Shown here: in pieces, positions 57 through 45,004 of the stretch
Position numbering within the stretch: the first letter of the stretch is position 1
Layout of the letters: every line of letters begins with the position of its first letter
Virus record (IMG/VR): IMGVR_UViG_3300045988_058230
Location: 1-45,004 of that record
Strand: one strand, 5' to 3'
Source: a virus
DNA: 45,004 nucleotides
Position numbers and translations under genes: made by a program
The notes under the pieces: model-generated
Told to the model about the DNA's origin: nothing
The model's database searches: none
The model's input: the letters and a program-made list of their open reading frames with translations, nothing else

Positions 57-129
57 ATTCCCGTAGCTCAATCGGTAGAGCAGCGGTCTCCAAAACCGCA
101 TGTTGCAGGTTCGAGCCCTGCCGGGAGTG
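57..129 (+). tRNA. tRNA-Trp (anticodon CCA), canonical cloverleaf with no encoded CCA.
   Basis: Hand fold: acceptor ATTCCCG/CGGGAGT (one G-U pair); D arm GCTC-AATCGGTA-GAGC; anticodon arm GCGGT-CTCCAAA-ACCGC; variable loop ATGTT; T arm GCAGG-TTCGAGC-CCTGC. Confidence 0.85.
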
Positions 130-251
130 CTTGCGTGCCCTATGAGGGGGCCGCGCAATAGCGGGGCATTCGGCCGCGAAAGTTCCGGATGCAGCAGCGC
201 CCACCGTTTGACGCATGTCCAACGAACTGAATGCACGGGTGCTGCTTATAT

Positions 252-387
252 GCCGTCATAGCTCAATTGGCAGAGCGCCGTCCATTTAAGGCGGGACAAC
301 GTTGGTGACACCACGGGAACATCACTGCACAGCCAACCACTGCGCACATCCATTCCGTGGGTGCTGGTTCAAATCCAGCTGGCGGCA
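252..387 (+). tRNA. Non-canonical tRNA-like gene (136 nt). Acceptor, D and T arms are perfect. The anticodon loop is CATTTAA (UUU/Lys-like, but A at position 33). A 68-nt structured insertion replaces the variable loop.
   Basis: Acceptor GCCGTCA/TGGCGGC (7 bp, one G-U pair); D arm GCTC-AATTGGCA-GAGC; anticodon stem CCGTC/GGCGG; T arm GCTGG-TTCAAAT-CCAGC. Positions 295..362 fold into a two-segment hairpin, with pairing roughly 309-319 to 353-361 and 326-332 to 340-346. Confidence 0.55.
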
Positions 388-401
388 CATTCGATATTTT
401 G

Positions 402-432
402 ACCGTTCGGATTTCCGGGCGGTTTTTCTTTT
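402..432 (+). terminator. Rho-independent terminator closing the tRNA cluster, upstream of terS.
   Basis: Stem ACCGTTCGG/CCGGGCGGT (9 bp, two G-U pairs), loop ATTT, followed by TTTTTCTTTT. Confidence 0.7.
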
Positions 433-457
433 GCATGAGTTTAGAGAGGTGGTGGCG

Positions 458-5839: not shown

Positions 5840-6127
5840 ATGGAAACACCAAAAATCACGAAGGTGGAGCTTGAACTGGATGCTGTTTCTGGCGAACTCC
5901 GAGTAATGCACGACCTGTTGAACATCTTTGCCAACTGGTTTGAGGAAACGCACAAGACCGATATGATCAAGCGGGAGCGCACCAGCGAGCTTGTGAGCCA
6001 GATTTGGAGCGAAGCCCCGATGTACAGCTCTATGCTGACGGCCTTGTTTGCATCCCTCACCGGGCTGGAAAAGGAAGTTGATGCAGTTCTTGAATCGGAG
6101 ATTGCGAGGGTCAGCAATGGATGCTAA
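5840..6127 (+). CDS. Hypothetical protein.
   Basis: 95-aa ORF in the moron island. Its stop overlaps the start of the next gene (ATG 6117). Confidence 0.5.
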   Translation: METPKITKVELELDAVSGELRVMHDLLNIFANWFEETHKTDMIKRERTSELVSQIWSEAPMYSSMLTALFASLTGLEKEVDAVLESEIARVSNGC

Positions 6128-6752
6128 AAAAGATATTGAAGGGAAAAGATTTGGCAGATTAATTGCGATAGAGCTTGTTCCGGGAAATGGACGTTCCAGG
6201 TGGAAATGTGTTTGCGACTGCGGTAATACTATAGAAGCAAATCGAACCAATTTGGTATCTGGAAATACCAAAAGCTGTGGATGTTTAAGAAAGGAAACTT
6301 CAAGAAAAAATGTAGAAAAGCACCCATTTACTAAAAAGCATGGGAAGCACGGAACCAGAATATATGAAACGTGGGCAAATATGCTTTCTAGGTGTAGAAA
6401 TCCTAAAATCAGATCGTATAGAGATTATGGATCCAGAGGAATCAAAGTATGTGAAGAGTGGCTTGAATTTGAAAATTTCTATAAATGGGCGTTATCATCG
6501 GGGTATAAAGAAAATTTAACGATTGACAGAATAGATGTTAATAAGGATTATTCACCAGAAAATTGCAGATGGGCAACAACAAAGCAACAGGCAAGAAACA
6601 AAAGAACATCCGTTTTTATTACTTATAAAGGAGAGACTAAGGTATTAAAAGATTGGGCGATAGAGTATAAAATAGACAGCTCAACGCTAAAAGGAAGAAT
6701 TTCGAGAGGATGGAGAATTGAAGACGCACTAACAAAACCGGTAAAAAAGTAA
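6117..6752 (+). CDS. Zinc-ribbon plus degenerate HNH-like DNA-binding protein, with the flavour of a homing endonuclease.
   Basis: The N-terminus reads GKRFGRLIAI..WKCVCDCG..SCGC and the centre reads TIDRIDVNKDYSPENCRWATTKQQARNK. The gene is AT-rich compared with the backbone. The N-terminal motif is shared with 22749..23450. Confidence 0.55.
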   Translation: MDAKKDIEGKRFGRLIAIELVPGNGRSRWKCVCDCGNTIEANRTNLVSGNTKSCGCLRKETSRKNVEKHPFTKKHGKHGTRIYETWANMLSRCRNPKIRSYRDYGSRGIKVCEEWLEFENFYKWALSSGYKENLTIDRIDVNKDYSPENCRWATTKQQARNKRTSVFITYKGETKVLKDWAIEYKIDSSTLKGRISRGWRIEDALTKPVKK

Positions 6753-6813: not shown

Positions 6814-6890
6814 GCCGCTTTAGCTCAGTCTGGCAGAGCACCGGACTTTTAATCCGGGGGCCGTGGGTTCAAGCCCCACAGGCGGCACCA
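6814..6890 (+). tRNA. tRNA-Lys (anticodon UUU), canonical, with encoded CCA.
   Basis: Acceptor GCCGCTT/AGGCGGC; D arm GCTC..GAGC; anticodon arm CCGGA-CTTTTAA-TCCGG; T arm GTGGG-TTCAAGC-CCCAC; 3' end ACCA. Confidence 0.9.
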
Positions 6891-10373: not shown

Positions 10374-10778
10374 ATGAAATTTTTGACAGAGCTGCCCGAT
10401 GAAGATTTTCTGCGCCACTGCTGGCAGATCGCCGATGTGGCAGAGGAGGTCTTGGAAAAATCCAAGATCATGGAGCTGCGCAAGGTTCTGCCGGTCCTGA
10501 CCGGCGATGAAACGCCGGAGGAGCTGGAACAGAAGAAGAAGGAACAGGCAAAAAAGAACATTCAGGCTATGGCAAAAAGCTTGCTGTTCGACAATGCCGC
10601 TGCCACCGCAAAGCTGCTTCCGCTGCTCTATGAGCCGGACGTGGATGAAAACGGGGTGGTTGAAAACATCGGCCCGTTCAAGAAGATGCGCGCGGTGAAA
10701 GAACTGCTGAACAACGATGATGTAATGGATTTTTTGCTCTGGTGTCTGCCGTTGGTGCTGGCGGGTACAGACGCCTGA
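10374..10778 (+). CDS. Tail assembly chaperone (gpG-like).
   Basis: 134-aa acidic protein upstream of the tape measure gene. It contains the slippery site T-TTT-TTG at 10730..10736. Confidence 0.7.
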   Translation: MKFLTELPDEDFLRHCWQIADVAEEVLEKSKIMELRKVLPVLTGDETPEELEQKKKEQAKKNIQAMAKSLLFDNAAATAKLLPLLYEPDVDENGVVENIGPFKKMRAVKELLNNDDVMDFLLWCLPLVLAGTDA

Positions 10779-11044
10779 TTTCTTCCATCAGCCCGGACGC
10801 GCTGCGGCTGTTTGGCAGGCCGTACATTTTGCAGCACTGCCTGAACGCTTTGCGGCAAGAGCGCATCACGCTCAGCTATCAGGCGTACATGACGGACGCT
10901 CTGGCGCACCTTATAGGCGCGGAAGAACGGTGGTACGACATGGTGGCCGGGCTTGTGGAAAACCGCCCACAGCCGCCGCAGCCGTCCGCTGATGAAGTGA
11001 TAGCACGCATTAAAAATGGCTTGAACGGGGGTGATGGAACCTGA
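10730..11044 (+). CDS. -1 frame extension of the tail chaperone (gpGT-like fusion made by programmed frameshifting).
   Basis: The -1 frame is open from the slippery heptamer at 10730 through 11044. This is the classic G/GT arrangement before the tape measure gene. Confidence 0.6.
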   Translation, partial: FFALVSAVGAGGYRRLISSISPDALRLFGRPYILQHCLNALRQERITLSYQAYMTDALAHLIGAEERWYDMVAGLVENRPQPPQPSADEVIARIKNGLNGGDGT

Positions 11045-19972: not shown

Positions 19973-21919
19973 ATGATCGAGCAAAGCGTATCTCTCGCAT
20001 CCAATGGCGTCGTCAAAGTGCCGGGCTATGAGCAGCTGGTGCGCTTTGGCTACACCAAGAACCGGGGCGTGTACCGCCTGCACGTCGATGCAACCGGCGA
20101 GTGGGAGGGCCTGACCATCCGGGCATTTTGGCATGTGCCTGGCGGAAAGGACCCGGCGTCCACGCTGGTGCAGAACGGCACCATGGACGTGCCCGCCAGC
20201 GTGACCGCCAAAATCGGCTCCGGCTGCGTGACCTTTGAGGGAACCGACGGCACCAAGACCGTCACCAGTGCAGACCTGCGGTATCGTGTCAGCGCCAACA
20301 GCGGCACAGAGGACGGCACAGAGCCGGAGCCTGGCACACCTGCCTGGCAGGAGCTGGTGGGGGCCGTGCACACCGATGCCACCGCCGCAGAGCAGGCAAA
20401 GACCGATGCACAGACGGCAGCCAGCGAAGCGGCCACCAGTGCGGGCAATGCGAATCAGAGCGCTCAGGAAGCCGCTGGCAGCCTGCATGAGCTGAAGAAC
20501 GGCATCGCAAGCGGTGACTTTAAGGGCGAGAAAGGTGACAAGGGCGACACTGGTCCCATCGGCCCGGTCGGCCCGCAGGGTGCGCAAGGCCCTCAAGGCC
20601 CCACAGGCGCTGCCGGAGCCACTGGTCCGCAGGGCGAGACTGGCCCTCGTGGCGAGCAGGGGCCGCAGGGCATTCAGGGTGAGCAGGGTCCACAAGGTGA
20701 ACAAGGCCCAGCAGGACCAGAGGGACCCCAGGGGCCTAAAGGCGACCCCGGACCGGCAGGTGCAGACGGCAAAGATGGCACACAAATTGATGATACCGCC
20801 GTGACCGACTCTGCCCCGTGGAGCAGCAAGCACCTTGTGGACATGCTCTGCCCGCCGCTGGACGAGACCGGGAACCCTGTTGTGTGCTATCCGGTGGCGG
20901 GATATCCGCTGGGATGTAAGGTGAGCTGGGAGCCGACGCAGGAAGGGAGCGGGGAGCCTAGCCCGGACAACATCCGGCCAATTTCCGGGCGGGATAGCGT
21001 GACGGTCGAGCGGTGCGGGGAGAACTTATTAGATGTTGCACAATGCAGAGCCGCAATACCCAGTGCAGCGTATGGCCTTACTGTAACTGTCGATGATACT
21101 GGACTTATAAGGGTATTTGGTACACCAAAAGTGAATAAGGACACCCCACGGGCTACCTTCAGAGTTTTATCTACAGACCAAGTGACACTGGCCAAATTGA
21201 CCAAAGGGTATAATGCAAAATTGTTTGTCTTGAAAGGTGTTGCAAATAACATAACTCGCATTCAAAGTGATAAGTCAATTGTATTACAGTCCCCACTATC
21301 ACCAAATACACCTGTAGATATACAGTTCAGATTTATGTACTATACAGGCAACACCGCCCCCACCATTTACACCCCTTACACCGGCCAAACCGCAACCCTG
21401 ACCCTGCCCCACACCATCTACGGCGGCACGGTGGACGCAGTGACGGGTGGGGGGAATGAGAGGTGGAAGCTGCTGACGCTGGACGGGACGGAATCGTGGA
21501 ATGCCGTTGGATCAGGTGATACTCTTTATTTTCAGAGCACTTCGATTTCCATTGGAACAAGAGTGCTGTCCAGGGACGATTATTGCACAACGTTCCCTAT
21601 TGCATCGGTTTCAAGTTCAAATACGGTACAAGGAGTAAGCGGGTGGAAAACATCCCTATATCTGCGTTGGTCTACATTTGCAGACGTTGCCGCTTTGAAA
21701 TCCTACCTCGCCGCCCAGTACGCCGCCGGAACCCCTGTGCAAGTCTGCTACAAGCTGACAGAGCCTGTACCGGTTACCGCCACAGGTGGCGTACCCATCA
21801 AGGCACTGAGCGGCGTTAACACCGTCTTGACCGATGCAGATAACGTGACTGTGACCGGCAGGGCTGACCCCATCAAACGCATTACTGATTTGGAAGCAGC
21901 GGTTGCTTCTATCAACTGA
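19973..21919 (+). CDS. Collagen-like repeat fibre protein.
   Basis: 648 aa with 28 uninterrupted G-X-Y triplets ([19 protein letters not shown]...GADGKDG), and a large C-terminal domain with AT-rich patches. Confidence 0.85.
20525..20779 (+). repeat. Collagen triple-helix coding repeat (G-X-Y, 28 triplets).
   Basis: Read from the translation of 19973..21919. Confidence 0.9.
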
Positions 21920-27762: not shown

Positions 27763-28896
27763 TCAGTACTTCATCTTCTGCATTTCCTGCAACAAATAGG
27801 CTGGATCGTTGTGGGACACGTACTTGTTTGCCGTGGTGGAGAAATTTTTGTGCCCAAGGATGGCCTGCACGGCGGTCTTTTCTAAGCCGCACTCCACCAT
27901 CTTGCTACTGGCCGTGTGGCGCAGCGTGTGTGGATGCACCCCCTCTATGTGGCATTCCTGCATCAACGCCCGGAACTTTGTAGCCACGTTGCGCTTATCC
28001 AGCTTTGTGCCGGTCTTGGATGGAATCAGCCACTCACAGCCGCTATCAAGCATCCAAAAGGCAATGATCTTGTAAATGGGCTCAAGGATGGGGATGATGC
28101 GGTTCTTGCCTGCTTCTGTCTTTTCACCGCCCTGCATGTACCGCTCTTTCAGGTGCACATCCTCGCAGCGCATGGAAAGCAGCTCGTCAATGCGCATACC
28201 GGTATAAAGCAGCACCATTGCAATTTGCGCCGTCTGCCCAAACTTCGGGTCATTTTGTCGGCTGCTGATCCGCTCGATCTCTTGGGCGGTCAGGGTGCGC
28301 TCTTCTTTTCCTGTAGCCGCCGGGAGCTGCAGTAGCATGGCGTAATTTTTGTTTATAATGTCCTGCGCCATTGCCCACTCGCAGATCTGGCTGAAAAGTG
28401 TGCGCTGCTTTTCGCAGGAGCTGCGGGAAAGTCCCTTTTCCACCATTGCGTCAATGACCTGTTGATAATCTGCCGCTTTTAAGTCCCGCAATTGTCGGTC
28501 GTATAGCGGAACAGCCTTTGCATAGGCCAGCTCGTACCCCTTTTGCATGTCCGTGCTGAGCTTGTCAAATTTGGGCTGCGCTTTCCATTTGGCATAGGCA
28601 TCCGCAAAGGTGCATTTCAGACGCGCTGCGGGCGTGTTCTGGGCGTTGTAAGCGTCCAGCGCTTGTACGGCTTCGCCTGCCGTTTCAAACGTCCCCAGAA
28701 CGTCCCTTTGGGCTGTAAGCGCCACATACGGTCTTGCCCGCGTCCCACTCAGTTTATACACGCTGCCGCTGCCCTTGGGACGGCGGCGCTTTTTTCTTTG
28801 CTGCGGGGCGGCTTCCGGCTGCTTCTTCCCGCACCACGGACAAAAAGAAGCACCATCCGGGATCTCTTTCCTGCAGCATGGTCTCACGCATTTCAT
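27763..28896 (-). CDS. int: Tyrosine integrase with an N-terminal zinc ribbon.
   Basis: 377 aa. It begins MKCVRPCCRKEIPDGASFCPWCGKK and carries catalytic-type motifs TGMRIDELL, HTLRHTASS, LGH and NKYVSH (Tyr). Confidence 0.9.
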   Translation of the reverse strand: MKCVRPCCRKEIPDGASFCPWCGKKQPEAAPQQRKKRRRPKGSGSVYKLSGTRARPYVALTAQRDVLGTFETAGEAVQALDAYNAQNTPAARLKCTFADAYAKWKAQPKFDKLSTDMQKGYELAYAKAVPLYDRQLRDLKAADYQQVIDAMVEKGLSRSSCEKQRTLFSQICEWAMAQDIINKNYAMLLQLPAATGKEERTLTAQEIERISSRQNDPKFGQTAQIAMVLLYTGMRIDELLSMRCEDVHLKERYMQGGEKTEAGKNRIIPILEPIYKIIAFWMLDSGCEWLIPSKTGTKLDKRNVATKFRALMQECHIEGVHPHTLRHTASSKMVECGLEKTAVQAILGHKNFSTTANKYVSHNDPAYLLQEMQKMKY

Positions 28897-43790: not shown

Positions 43791-44090
43791 ATGCTTGATA
43801 TGCTATTTGAAGTTGCAAGCACGCTGTTCATGGCAACACTTGCAGGATTTTTCATCTGGTTTGTTCTTAGCGATGGCAACCCAATTGAATATTTCAAGCG
43901 GTGGCGCAACCGCAACAAACCTTGCCTTTGCGACCGGTGCGTTTTCTTAAATCAAAAATTTGGAGCGTCAGAATCCGGATATCACTATATCTGCCGGAGA
44001 AGTGACAAAGACGAAGGATACATAAATCCGCCCGAATATTGCAACGATTTTGAAGAAAGGAGCAACAATGACCCGCACATGGATACCTGA
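43791..44090 (+). CDS. Membrane-anchored Cys-containing protein.
   Basis: ATG at 43791. It has an N-terminal transmembrane segment, FEVASTLFMATLAGFFIWFVL. Confidence 0.5.
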   Translation: MLDMLFEVASTLFMATLAGFFIWFVLSDGNPIEYFKRWRNRNKPCLCDRCVFLNQKFGASESGYHYICRRSDKDEGYINPPEYCNDFEERSNNDPHMDT

Positions 44091-44523
44091 CACTGACGCC
44101 CAGAAGCAGGACAAAACCGATTACCGCACCGTTAAGGCGTGGCTAAACCGCTACCGCGAAGCAGAAAAAAGATACTACTTGCTGTCTGACCGTCTGGCCG
44201 AAGCGCAGGAGGCCACCCGGCACATTACCCAGAGCCTCAGCGCGGCCCCCGGCGGCAGCAAAGATGGCCAGAGCCTTGCCCGGGCGGTGGAACGCGAGGA
44301 GGAAGCGGAGCGCCGCGCTTATGAGCAAAGAGCGGTCTGCGACAGGCTGTTTCTTGAGATAAAAAGCGCACTTGACCGGATCCAGAACGAAAAAGCATAC
44401 ACGGTGCTGTACAAGTACTATCTCGATTGCCTCACGTGGGACAGGGTCGCAAAAGATATGAATTACTCTCTGCGCATGGTCTATGTCTTGCGGCGCAAAG
44501 CAATGGAGGAGCTGAGCCTTTAA
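44068..44523 (+). CDS. Late-gene transcriptional regulator (DUF1492/ArpU/RinA-like, sigma region-4-like C-terminus).
   Basis: ATG at 44068 behind AAAGGAG. The C-terminal region reads VLYKYYLDCLTWDRVAKDMNYSLRMVYVLRRKAMEEL. It is the last gene before the packaging module on the circle. Confidence 0.65.
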   Translation: MTRTWIPDTDAQKQDKTDYRTVKAWLNRYREAEKRYYLLSDRLAEAQEATRHITQSLSAAPGGSKDGQSLARAVEREEEAERRAYEQRAVCDRLFLEIKSALDRIQNEKAYTVLYKYYLDCLTWDRVAKDMNYSLRMVYVLRRKAMEELSL

Positions 44524-44707
44524 AAACATTGCACTGTCATTACATTGCGGTTTCACTATCGCATGGTGTAAAATTGTATCATCGGAAAAGCCAAAAGGCA
44601 AACCGATGAACGCAGCCTCCGAAACGTGTCCCTTCTTGGCATTTTCCTCCTTTTCTACTTGCAGGTACCGGGCTTTGCTCTCTTCACGTTTCGCGGGCTG
44701 CTTCTAT

Positions 44708-44778
44708 GCGATACACTGAAACAAAGGCAGCCTGCCGCTCATGAGAGACAGGAGACGGTTCGATTCCGCCGTATCGCA
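44708..44778 (+). ncRNA. tRNA-like element with a perfect acceptor stem and T arm but no canonical anticodon arm.
   Basis: Acceptor GCGATAC/GTATCGC (7/7 bp), T arm GACGG-TTCGATT-CCGCC (4/5 bp), 3' end A-CC. The middle 39 nt folds only as an irregular hairpin (CCTG..CTC-ATGA-GAG..CAGG). Confidence 0.4.
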
Positions 44779-44784
44779 CCGTAT

Positions 44785-44930: not shown

Positions 44931-44998
44931 GCCGCCTGAGCGCAGTTTGGAGCGCGGCGCGTGTGTGTAGACACGGCTGGTTCGATTCCAAGGGCGGC
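44931..44998 (+). ncRNA. Degenerate tRNA-like element (68 nt) that spans the circular junction.
   Basis: Acceptor GCCGCCT/GGGCGGC. The D arm GCGC-AGTTTGGA-GCGC is textbook and the T loop TTCGATT is present. However, the T stem has only 3 bp, and the anticodon hairpin CGTGT-GTGTAG-ACACG has a 6-nt loop. Confidence 0.4.
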
Positions 44999-45004
44999 TT
45001 TTTA
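44950..45004. repeat. Right copy of the exact 55-bp terminal direct repeat (identical to 1..55).
   Basis: Base-for-base identity with 1..55. The length matches a common assembler k-mer overlap for circular contigs. Confidence 0.95.

Follow-up and report, generated by a model that had tools for sequence, protein, structure and literature searches.

What kind of RNA is encoded at positions 252-387 of the virus record IMGVR_UViG_3300045988_058230? A reading of this record made without any database search (hereafter the sequence-only reading) had noticed there a tRNA-like gene with a long structured insertion in its variable region and an A in place of U33, a nucleotide which is near-universal in tRNAs. 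We analysed the record over its whole length of 45,004 nucleotides, which we call the window, together with homologous loci from gut phages and metagenomes. The 136-nt unit turns out to be a tRNA derivative and a real, selectively maintained RNA gene, which forms one allele of an exchangeable tRNA cassette slot in a family of temperate phages. As for its function, our tentative preference goes to a role against host tRNA nucleases. Coordinates refer to the window and features lie on the plus strand unless stated otherwise.

A tRNA derivative with an extra domain

The unit (252..387) runs from the 5' end of an acceptor stem to the discriminator A387, and the CCA end is not encoded. When the whole window was searched with Rfam, the tRNA family RF00005 matched 252-387 over model positions 1-71 with 46.4 bits, for a gathering score of 29 (E=6.8e-07), and the alignment contained one large insertion, sited between the anticodon arm and the T arm. 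Read directly, the acceptor stem joins 252-258 to 380-386 by 7 pairs, one of which is a U.G. The 5' part of the molecule (252..276) continues with U8 and A9 and then with the D arm (261-276), which has a 4-bp stem (261-264/273-276) and the D loop AAUUGGCA containing G18G19. The anticodon arm (278..294) is made of the stem 278-282/290-294 (CCGUC/GGCGG) and of the loop CAUUUAA (283-289), in which A33 is nucleotide 284, the anticodon UUU occupies 285-287, and A37 and A38 come next; positions 36-41 in tRNA numbering read UAAGGC. The insert follows (295-362, 68 nt), and the 3' part (363..387) consists of the T arm (GCUGG UUCAAAU CCAGC, with the stem 363-367/375-379 and the loop UUCAAAU), of the 3' acceptor strand UGGCGGC and of the discriminator. 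The minimum free energy (MFE) fold of the unit is a cloverleaf plus a long hairpin, and the core nucleotides A15/U48 are present in addition to G18G19. The Rfam score and the direct reading thus confirm the intact acceptor stem, D arm and T arm reported by the sequence-only reading, as well as its combination of A33 with a UUU anticodon.

In the window, ARAGORN calls a tRNA-Trp(CCA) at 57-130 and a tRNA-Lys(UUU) at 6814-6890 and does not call the unit. When the insert, which takes the place of a variable loop of 4-5 nt, is trimmed in silico to that length, the program calls tRNA-Lys(UUU), with A33 and with U33 alike. This means that the insert alone blocks the detection. Two features depart from a tRNA: every unit has A33 in its 7-nt loop, and the variable region, for which ~4-24 nt are expected, measures 68 nt in the window and 53-87 nt in the homologues. 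The other core nucleotides (U8, A14, G18G19, G53, U54-U55-C56 and A58) are invariant or nearly so among 108 distinct units, a set on which several of the counts given below are based.

The 68 nt of the insert had been described as a two-segment hairpin with a CCAACCA apical loop. The insert is indeed structured and has that apical loop, but its first 13 nt are an unpaired linker and the arm proper has 55 nt. The linker (GACAACGUUGGUG, 295..307) is unpaired in the MFE and in the consensus folds, and its consensus GACAACGYUGGUG is near-invariant and common to all units. The extra arm of the window (308..362), which we call type A, has two helices, internal loops and an apical loop: a basal helix 308-318/353-362 with A310 bulged, a 5' internal loop with the motif ACAUC (319-323), a 7-bp apical helix 326-332/340-346 with a conserved A329.C343 mismatch, the apical loop CCAACCA (333-339) with the motif AACCA (335-339), and a 3' internal loop (347-352). 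Among the 317 loci listed, the arm occurs in three versions whose helix sequences are unrelated: type A with 55 nt (~258 loci), type B with 69-74 nt in three stacked helices (~45 loci) and type C with 56-57 nt (14 loci). Type B and type C units score 42.2 and 47.1 bits respectively with the Rfam tRNA model. Odd variants exist, one of them (L145) without the apical hairpin and another with a perfectly paired arm, and no arm starts were found beyond the known types.

The motif ACAUC, which lies in the internal loop immediately 5' to the apical helix, is kept in all three arm types, and AACCA, located in the apical loop, is found in 100 of the 108 units across types, the others being one base off. 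A pairing of the linker with these motifs (UGGU with ACCA, or GGUG with CAUC) is conceivable; linker and motifs are too invariant for a covariation test of it. The linker sequence CUGGUGA resembles the CUGAUGA box of the hammerhead ribozyme. We rejected this candidate, as the essential A6 and the GAAA element are lacking and most units read UUGGUGA. In type B (for instance L124:3505-3659), the 3' part of the arm contains a second copy of the GGCGG that forms the 3' anticodon-stem strand, and this copy could pair with the 5' strand of that stem; the intron mode of ARAGORN exploits this pairing, which is not available in types A and C.

A pattern made of the 5' half with the CAUUUAA loop retrieves additional relatives bearing different arms, and the loop is invariant in all the units that were retrieved without forcing it. 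No CAUUUAA-loop tRNA of this body was found without the linker, nor, in the viral and metagenome collections, any linker-bearing unit with a non-U35, and a family of similar tRNAs with other anticodons was rejected on the latter ground. The A33-containing loop and the linker with its insert are thus strictly coupled.

Is the unit more than a chance fragment? The sequence-only reading had judged a random origin unlikely, and the homologues bear it out. Our collection comprises at least 160 distinct sequences from at least 317 loci: a 25-mer from the arm has matches in more than 119 IMG/VR contigs, and a scan of metagenomes added at least 119 further loci. The gut-phage contig MT839005 is 79% identical to the window overall; its unit is ~94% identical, whereas the adjacent upstream spacer cannot be aligned. 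The T stem of that unit shows a compensatory change from U-A to C-G. Among the 108 units, acceptor pair 5 occurs as U-G, C-G or U-A and pair 6 of that stem as C-G, U-G or U-A, pairs 2 and 4 of the anticodon stem switch from C-G to A-U, and T-stem pair 3 is C-G in 36 cases, U-A in 63 and U-G in 9, while the discriminator is A in 54, U in 51, G in 2 and C in 1. From an alignment of 49 sequences, RNAalifold recovers the cloverleaf and the base of the extra arm. When pairs were counted, 98.5% of the cells were paired, against 93.6% in shuffles, and 10 pairs were changed on both sides where 4.7 were expected, six of these ten lying in the extra arm; none of the 500 shuffles reached the observed values. 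In a control where the 3' partners were slid by 1-3 columns, 28-43% of the cells were paired. The helices of type A are 97-100% paired over 125 variants, 120 of which keep the A.C mismatch, and each of the three helices of type B shows a compensatory double change. Covariation covers the four cloverleaf helices and the arm helices, and the compensatory changes in homologous phages that had been proposed as a check on the insert are hence present in its helices.

A decaying tRNA pseudogene, a product of chance or an artefact of assembly would fit the missing ARAGORN call, and there are other degenerate tRNA-like fragments in the same RNA island. Against this explanation, the distinct variants keep every helix by compensatory change, the unit is far better conserved than its flanks, and it is found in independent assemblies (IMG/VR, ENA, GenBank and Logan). 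We consider that its probability is close to nil.

One may also think of an intervening sequence, an intron or an excised hairpin, the removal of which would leave a tRNA of normal size; a processed precursor was among the roles suggested by the sequence-only reading. The insert varies in length and its helices differ by type, as is often the case in introns, a natural variant lacks the apical hairpin, and ARAGORN can force an intron model. But the models so obtained are inconsistent, as the -i mode gives five anticodons for seven homologues (Asn-AUU, Val-UAC, Lys-UUU, 'Stop'-UUA and Glu-UUC), and we found no simple alternative canonical fold. The insert lies in the variable region and not at the 37/38 site, its 68 nt are far below the size of self-splicing introns, and Rfam at E up to 5 detects no group I or other intron or ribozyme family, tRNA being the only family found in units with arms of types A, B and C. 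Bacteria are not known to possess the bulge-helix-bulge splicing endonuclease. Moreover, the linker and the loop motifs, invariant in three unrelated versions of the arm, fit a function in the mature RNA, and A33 would remain after the excision. The idea of a precursor losing its insert is therefore unsupported, and we hold an intervening sequence to be very improbable.

The known tRNAs with a paired extra arm between the anticodon and the T arms are those of class II (bacterial tRNA-Leu, tRNA-Ser and tRNA-Tyr, to which tRNA-Sec may be added), and the unit would share the L-shape with them. Their arms are ~10-24 nt long, and 1-3 nt separate them from the anticodon stem. The unit differs from them by an insert of 68-87 nt, by the 13-nt single-stranded linker, by an arm of 55-74 nt in the main types, with two or three helices and internal loops, by A33, and by a UUU anticodon where they have those of Leu, Ser or Tyr, or UCA. 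In tRNA-Sec, furthermore, the acceptor and T stems are of 8/5 or 9/4 bp and the D stem has 6 bp, whereas the unit has the 7/5 geometry and a 4-bp D stem. On these grounds we rejected a class II tRNA and, in agreement with the sequence-only reading, tRNA-Sec. tmRNA, whose tRNA-like domain goes with a tag reading frame and pseudoknots, and the bacterial Y-RNA-like YrlA also join a tRNA-shaped module to extra structured RNA, but they are devoid of a true anticodon arm or have the acceptor stem replaced, while the cloverleaf of the unit is complete. Both candidates were rejected: ARAGORN finds no tmRNA and the unit has a full anticodon arm, and YrlA scores 19.4 bits for a threshold of 69, elsewhere in a relative. 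In the literature, we found no description of a natural tRNA of this kind. The closest architectural relatives are synthetic, namely the engineered aptamer-tagged and V-Spinach tRNAs, in which a structured module is placed in the variable arm or loop and the body stays folded, as in the unit (PMC7590224); those molecules are man-made, while the unit is natural, conserved and widespread.

Alleles of a tRNA cassette slot

How does the unit come and go among closely related phages? At 88 loci, the TerL protein is 97-100% identical to that of the window; the unit is present in 50 of them and absent from 38. Many of the unit-less loci are collinear with the window up to 249 and resume at 390, and the precise empty site reads GCTGCTTAT directly joined to TTTGATATTTTGACCG (also rendered as GCTGCTTAT joined to TTTGATATT). 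In some others, a normal 75-nt tRNA-Thr(UGU) lies in exactly the same flanks. Its first 25 nt, its T loop and its 3' acceptor strand are identical to those of the unit, and the two differ in the anticodon arm (loop CUUGUAA versus CAUUUAA), in the variable region and in the T stem. At one locus (L225), the same flanks enclose a canonical tRNA-Lys(UUU). In the window, the slot is bordered upstream by CTTATAT (245..251) and downstream by CATTCGATATTTT, which is followed by an intrinsic terminator (388..434 in all, with the stem-loop 401-424 and a T-run); the same downstream flank lies behind the tRNA-Thr, tRNA-Lys and empty alleles. Hence, we concluded that several alleles are exchanged at one tRNA cassette slot, namely the unit, an empty site, tRNA-Thr(UGU) and tRNA-Lys(UUU). 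Two features are thereby added to what the sequence-only reading had described: the acceptor stem and the D arm of the unit are those of the tRNA-Thr body of the family, and the unit as a whole is a presence/absence cassette.

The cassettes that recur in the family, distributed over two or three slots, are Trp-CCA, Met/Ile2-CAU, Lys-UUU and Thr-UGU. The Lys(UUU) and Thr(UGU) tRNAs of the family share one body and differ essentially at the anticodon loop (CUUUUAA versus UUUGUAA) and at position 26. Judging from these sequences, the switching of anticodons on a fixed scaffold is common in this phage family. Since the two tRNAs share one body, their aminoacylation identity probably rests largely on the anticodon.

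Should the unit then be seen as an ordinary elongator tRNA-Lys(UUU), which decodes AAA and in which a giant variable arm is tolerated or mildly useful? The cloverleaf, the tertiary nucleotides, the 7-nt loop, the invariant UUU and A37 are all intact, the slot is otherwise filled by normal tRNAs, and the anticodon, on which the Lys or Thr identity seems to rest in this family, is UUU in the unit. Among engineered tRNAs, those with a hairpin aptamer at the tip of the variable (V) arm can stay translationally active, but those with Spinach in the V loop are only marginally active (PMC7590224). In the unit, however, A33 is invariant and strictly coupled to the insert, and the 13-nt unpaired linker and the conserved loop motifs are foreign to any class II tRNA. 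A73 is an identity element for LysRS; a discriminator split between A (54) and U (51) would be unusual under selection for charging by this enzyme. Furthermore, the unit co-occurs with canonical tRNA-Lys(UUU), even as its direct neighbour: the same genome carries one with an encoded CCA in a second tRNA slot (6814..6890), and nine loci have one 492 nt downstream of the unit. This means that the unit is no substitute for tRNA-Lys. We regard an ordinary elongator as an unlikely explanation.

Candidate functions of the unit

We tentatively favour another reading, which we hold to be quite possible: the unit may be an anti-defence surrogate of tRNA-Lys(UUU) directed against a host tRNase, either as a cleavage-proof, shielded tRNA or as a decoy. 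The nuclease AriB of the PARIS system has tRNA-Lys(UUU) as well as tRNA-Thr(UGU) as its prime targets. It recognises U36-A-A-U39-C40/A41 and cuts the anticodon stem in its 3' strand, between positions 40 and 41 (at the slash); U16 in the D loop is read as well, the substitution U39A abolishes the cleavage, and phage T5 escapes through tRNA-Lys variants changed at 39, 41 and 16 (PMC12409363). That phage tRNAs mutated in the anticodon loop evade tRNases is a more general idea (PMC10264068). Over positions 36-41, the E. coli target reads UAAUCA (PMC12409363), the tRNA-Lys of the phage family UAAUC/C, the tRNA-Thr of the slot UAAUC/G and the unit UAAGG/C. The unit is altered at 39-40, it has A33 as well, and its arm module starts 3 nt past the AriB site; we therefore favour the anti-tRNase reading. 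The candidate role of a nuclease-resistant or decoy Lys-tRNA, proposed by the sequence-only reading, thereby gains support of a circumstantial kind.

The course of events would be as follows. The RNA would be transcribed together with tRNA-Trp, excised by RNase P and RNase Z, and given its CCA end. It would fold into the L-shape, with the extra domain projecting from the variable pocket beside the 3' strand of the anticodon stem. The target would be a host tRNase of the PARIS/AriB-like or PrrC/RloC-like kind or similar, one that attacks tRNA-Lys and tRNA-Thr in the anticodon arm. In a first version, the unit would be a cleavage-proof Lys tRNA, with positions 33, 39 and 40 altered and the arm acting as a steric shield. 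In a second version, it would be an uncuttable decoy that still displays the UUU loop, and the conserved motifs of the arm would hold the enzyme or another protein. These motifs may thus serve either to fold a shield or to hold a protein. The closest functional relatives of the unit may be the T5-type anti-PARIS tRNAs, which are likewise phage-encoded UUU tRNAs substituted within the AriB positions 39-41; these have a normal size and keep U33, whereas the unit, known here from its sequence, has a giant arm and motifs that have no counterpart in T5.

Several points weigh against the anti-tRNase reading. The nearest named relatives of the phage are phages of Bacillota, with TerL identities of at most 57%; no PARIS-, PrrC- or RloC-type system could be tied to the host, and the AriB rules derive from E. 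coli and may not transfer. Among the open reading frames (ORFs) scanned, there was no RNA ligase, reverse transcriptase, aminoacyl-tRNA synthetase, tRNA nuclease or PADLOC defence family, and no ORF within 3.5 kb on either side was associated with the presence of the unit (best p = 0.008 before correction for multiple tests). The supply of tRNAs for A-ending codons in a phage of 55% GC could account just as well for the Lys(UUU), Thr(UGU) and Met/Ile2(CAU) cassettes; of the two Lys codons, AAA is the rarer in the 13 genes tested (116 AAA versus 223 AAG). Lastly, invariant sequence motifs would be superfluous in a pure steric shield.

These motifs bring us to another explanation, according to which the unit is an aptamer or a regulatory RNA on a tRNA scaffold. 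The partner of the arm would be a protein or an RNA of the host or the phage with no link to tRNase defence, such as a factor that controls late genes or lysogeny, or an enzyme that uses aminoacyl-tRNA off the ribosome, and the tRNA body would provide processing and stability. The three arm versions differ in their helices but keep the motifs almost unchanged, and the conserved A.C mismatch suggests a specific recognition. The unit sits in the leader of the late operon, directly before the terminator, and its variable discriminator suggests that charging matters little. Engineered V-arm aptamers can indeed recruit or sequester proteins (PMC7590224). On the other hand, the anticodon loop is as invariant as the motifs of the arm, which a mere scaffold would not require, and the search around the unit revealed no neighbouring gene that co-varies with it. 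Two particular forms of this explanation were rejected. A guide or antisense RNA acting on the phage's own genome is one of them, as words complementary to the insert occur there at chance level. The other is an antitermination RNA acting at the terminator 401-434: sister phages with an empty slot keep the same terminator and late genes, and hence the unit is unneeded for the read-through and dispensable for late expression. All in all, we find such a role doubtful.

The anti-tRNase reading can be pushed further, to an 'armoured' or decoy tRNA that would be a counter-defence made of RNA only, in which an aptamer-like domain in the variable pocket of a tRNA-Lys look-alike would block or trap an immune nuclease directed at tRNA-Lys or tRNA-Thr, whether PARIS/AriB-like, PrrC/RloC-like or as yet undescribed. 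We think this extended form improbable. If it were true, the unit would be an inhibitor and not a mere replacement tRNA, no earlier natural tRNA with an aptamer domain would be known, and the unit would represent a new class of anti-defence RNA in abundant human-gut phages.

The phage, its RNA island and the scope of the finding

In what genome does this cassette reside? The window is a phage genome of ~44.95 kb (~44,949 bp), whose first 55 nucleotides (1-55) are identical to 44950-45004. Since its ends are identical, it is a complete circular or terminally redundant genome, and the tRNA island crosses the junction. The phage is a temperate siphovirus, and its family is very abundant in the human gut. 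Among the proteins that the phage encodes are an integrase (27763-28896, minus strand), CI/Cro-like regulators, an antirepressor, RecT, SSB, a DnaD-like protein, a methyltransferase and RusA, as well as a DUF1492/ArpU-like late regulator (44050-44523), and for packaging and structure TerS, TerL, a portal and tail proteins. Some of the metagenome contigs that bear the unit reach 83-250 kb, from which it follows that the phage occurs as a prophage, too. A TerL identical to that of the window was found only on contigs of at most 50 kb. In 185,579 reference prokaryote genomes, searched with the type A core only, the unit was not found; a 20-mer from the type A arm gave only 3 chance matches there, and we rejected on this ground a host gene or an attachment site.

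Between the late regulator and terS lies a gene-free RNA island of ~870 nt, which contains in this order two degenerate tRNA-like fragments, tRNA-Trp(CCA), a strongly folded spacer, the unit and the intrinsic terminator. The terminator ends at 434, directly before the ribosome-binding site of terS, whose GTG start is at 458. The tRNA-Trp (57..130) is a constant neighbour of the slot, located ~195 nt upstream of it in 179 of 203 loci. At two loci (L050 and L084), a tRNA-Trp(CCA) body with a CUA anticodon, that is an amber-suppressor twin, is found ~199 nt upstream of the unit; none of the 13 window genes tested contains an in-frame TAG. In the RNA island of some relatives (at L021, where it is ~479 nt upstream of the unit, and at L218), ARAGORN calls a tRNA whose anticodon loop has 8 nt and whose anticodon has four bases, '(attg)'.

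In the first of the degenerate fragments (44706-44782), an acceptor stem GCGAUAC/GUAUCGC is accompanied by a T arm and a 3' ACC, and a D arm is missing. The second (44931-45001, which continues at 1-49) has an acceptor stem, a D arm GCGC/GCGC, a weak T stem and a 6-nt 'anticodon' loop; its fold has z = -2.0, and its anticodon region differs in MT839005. Neither of the two is called by ARAGORN or by Rfam. The spacer that leads from tRNA-Trp to the slot (131-251) forms three hairpins (-52 kcal/mol, z = -2.4). In MT839005, the 5' two-thirds of the spacer are conserved and a different hairpin stands in place of its last one; it thus seems that some structure is retained immediately upstream of the slot.

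Directly upstream of the tRNA-Lys of the second slot, in the region of the head genes, lies a gene for an HNH endonuclease (6048-6752, PHROG 374, E = 4e-80). In relatives this slot holds Lys, Thr or Met tRNAs, and all this suggests a mobile cassette. Further along, the ORFs 10374-10778 and 10742-11044 overlap upstream of the tape-measure gene, which codes for 923 aa; together with the U-rich run GGATTTTTTG at ~10727-10736, this looks like the usual programmed frameshift of tail chaperones. A role of the unit as a helper of frameshifting at a Lys slippery site of this tail chaperone was rejected, as the site is U-rich and not a Lys one. A 648-aa protein with collagen triple-helix repeats (19973-21919, Pfam PF01391, E = 1.5e-13) is presumably a tail fibre.

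What does the unit mean for the biology of these phages? The architecture of tRNAs is among the most conserved in biology, and we have here a natural and widespread tRNA derivative that has lost U33 and carries in its variable pocket a domain of 68-87 nt, outside the known range of ~24 nt at most. It is present in hundreds of genomes of human-gut phages and is overlooked by standard tRNA annotation, a warning that tRNA finders under-report non-canonical viral tRNAs. Whatever its function, it offers a natural model for aptamer-tagged tRNAs. Finally, it bears on the arms race between phages and host tRNA nucleases, by leading to the testable hypothesis that phages may evolve shielded or decoy tRNAs, beyond tRNAs that are merely point-mutated.

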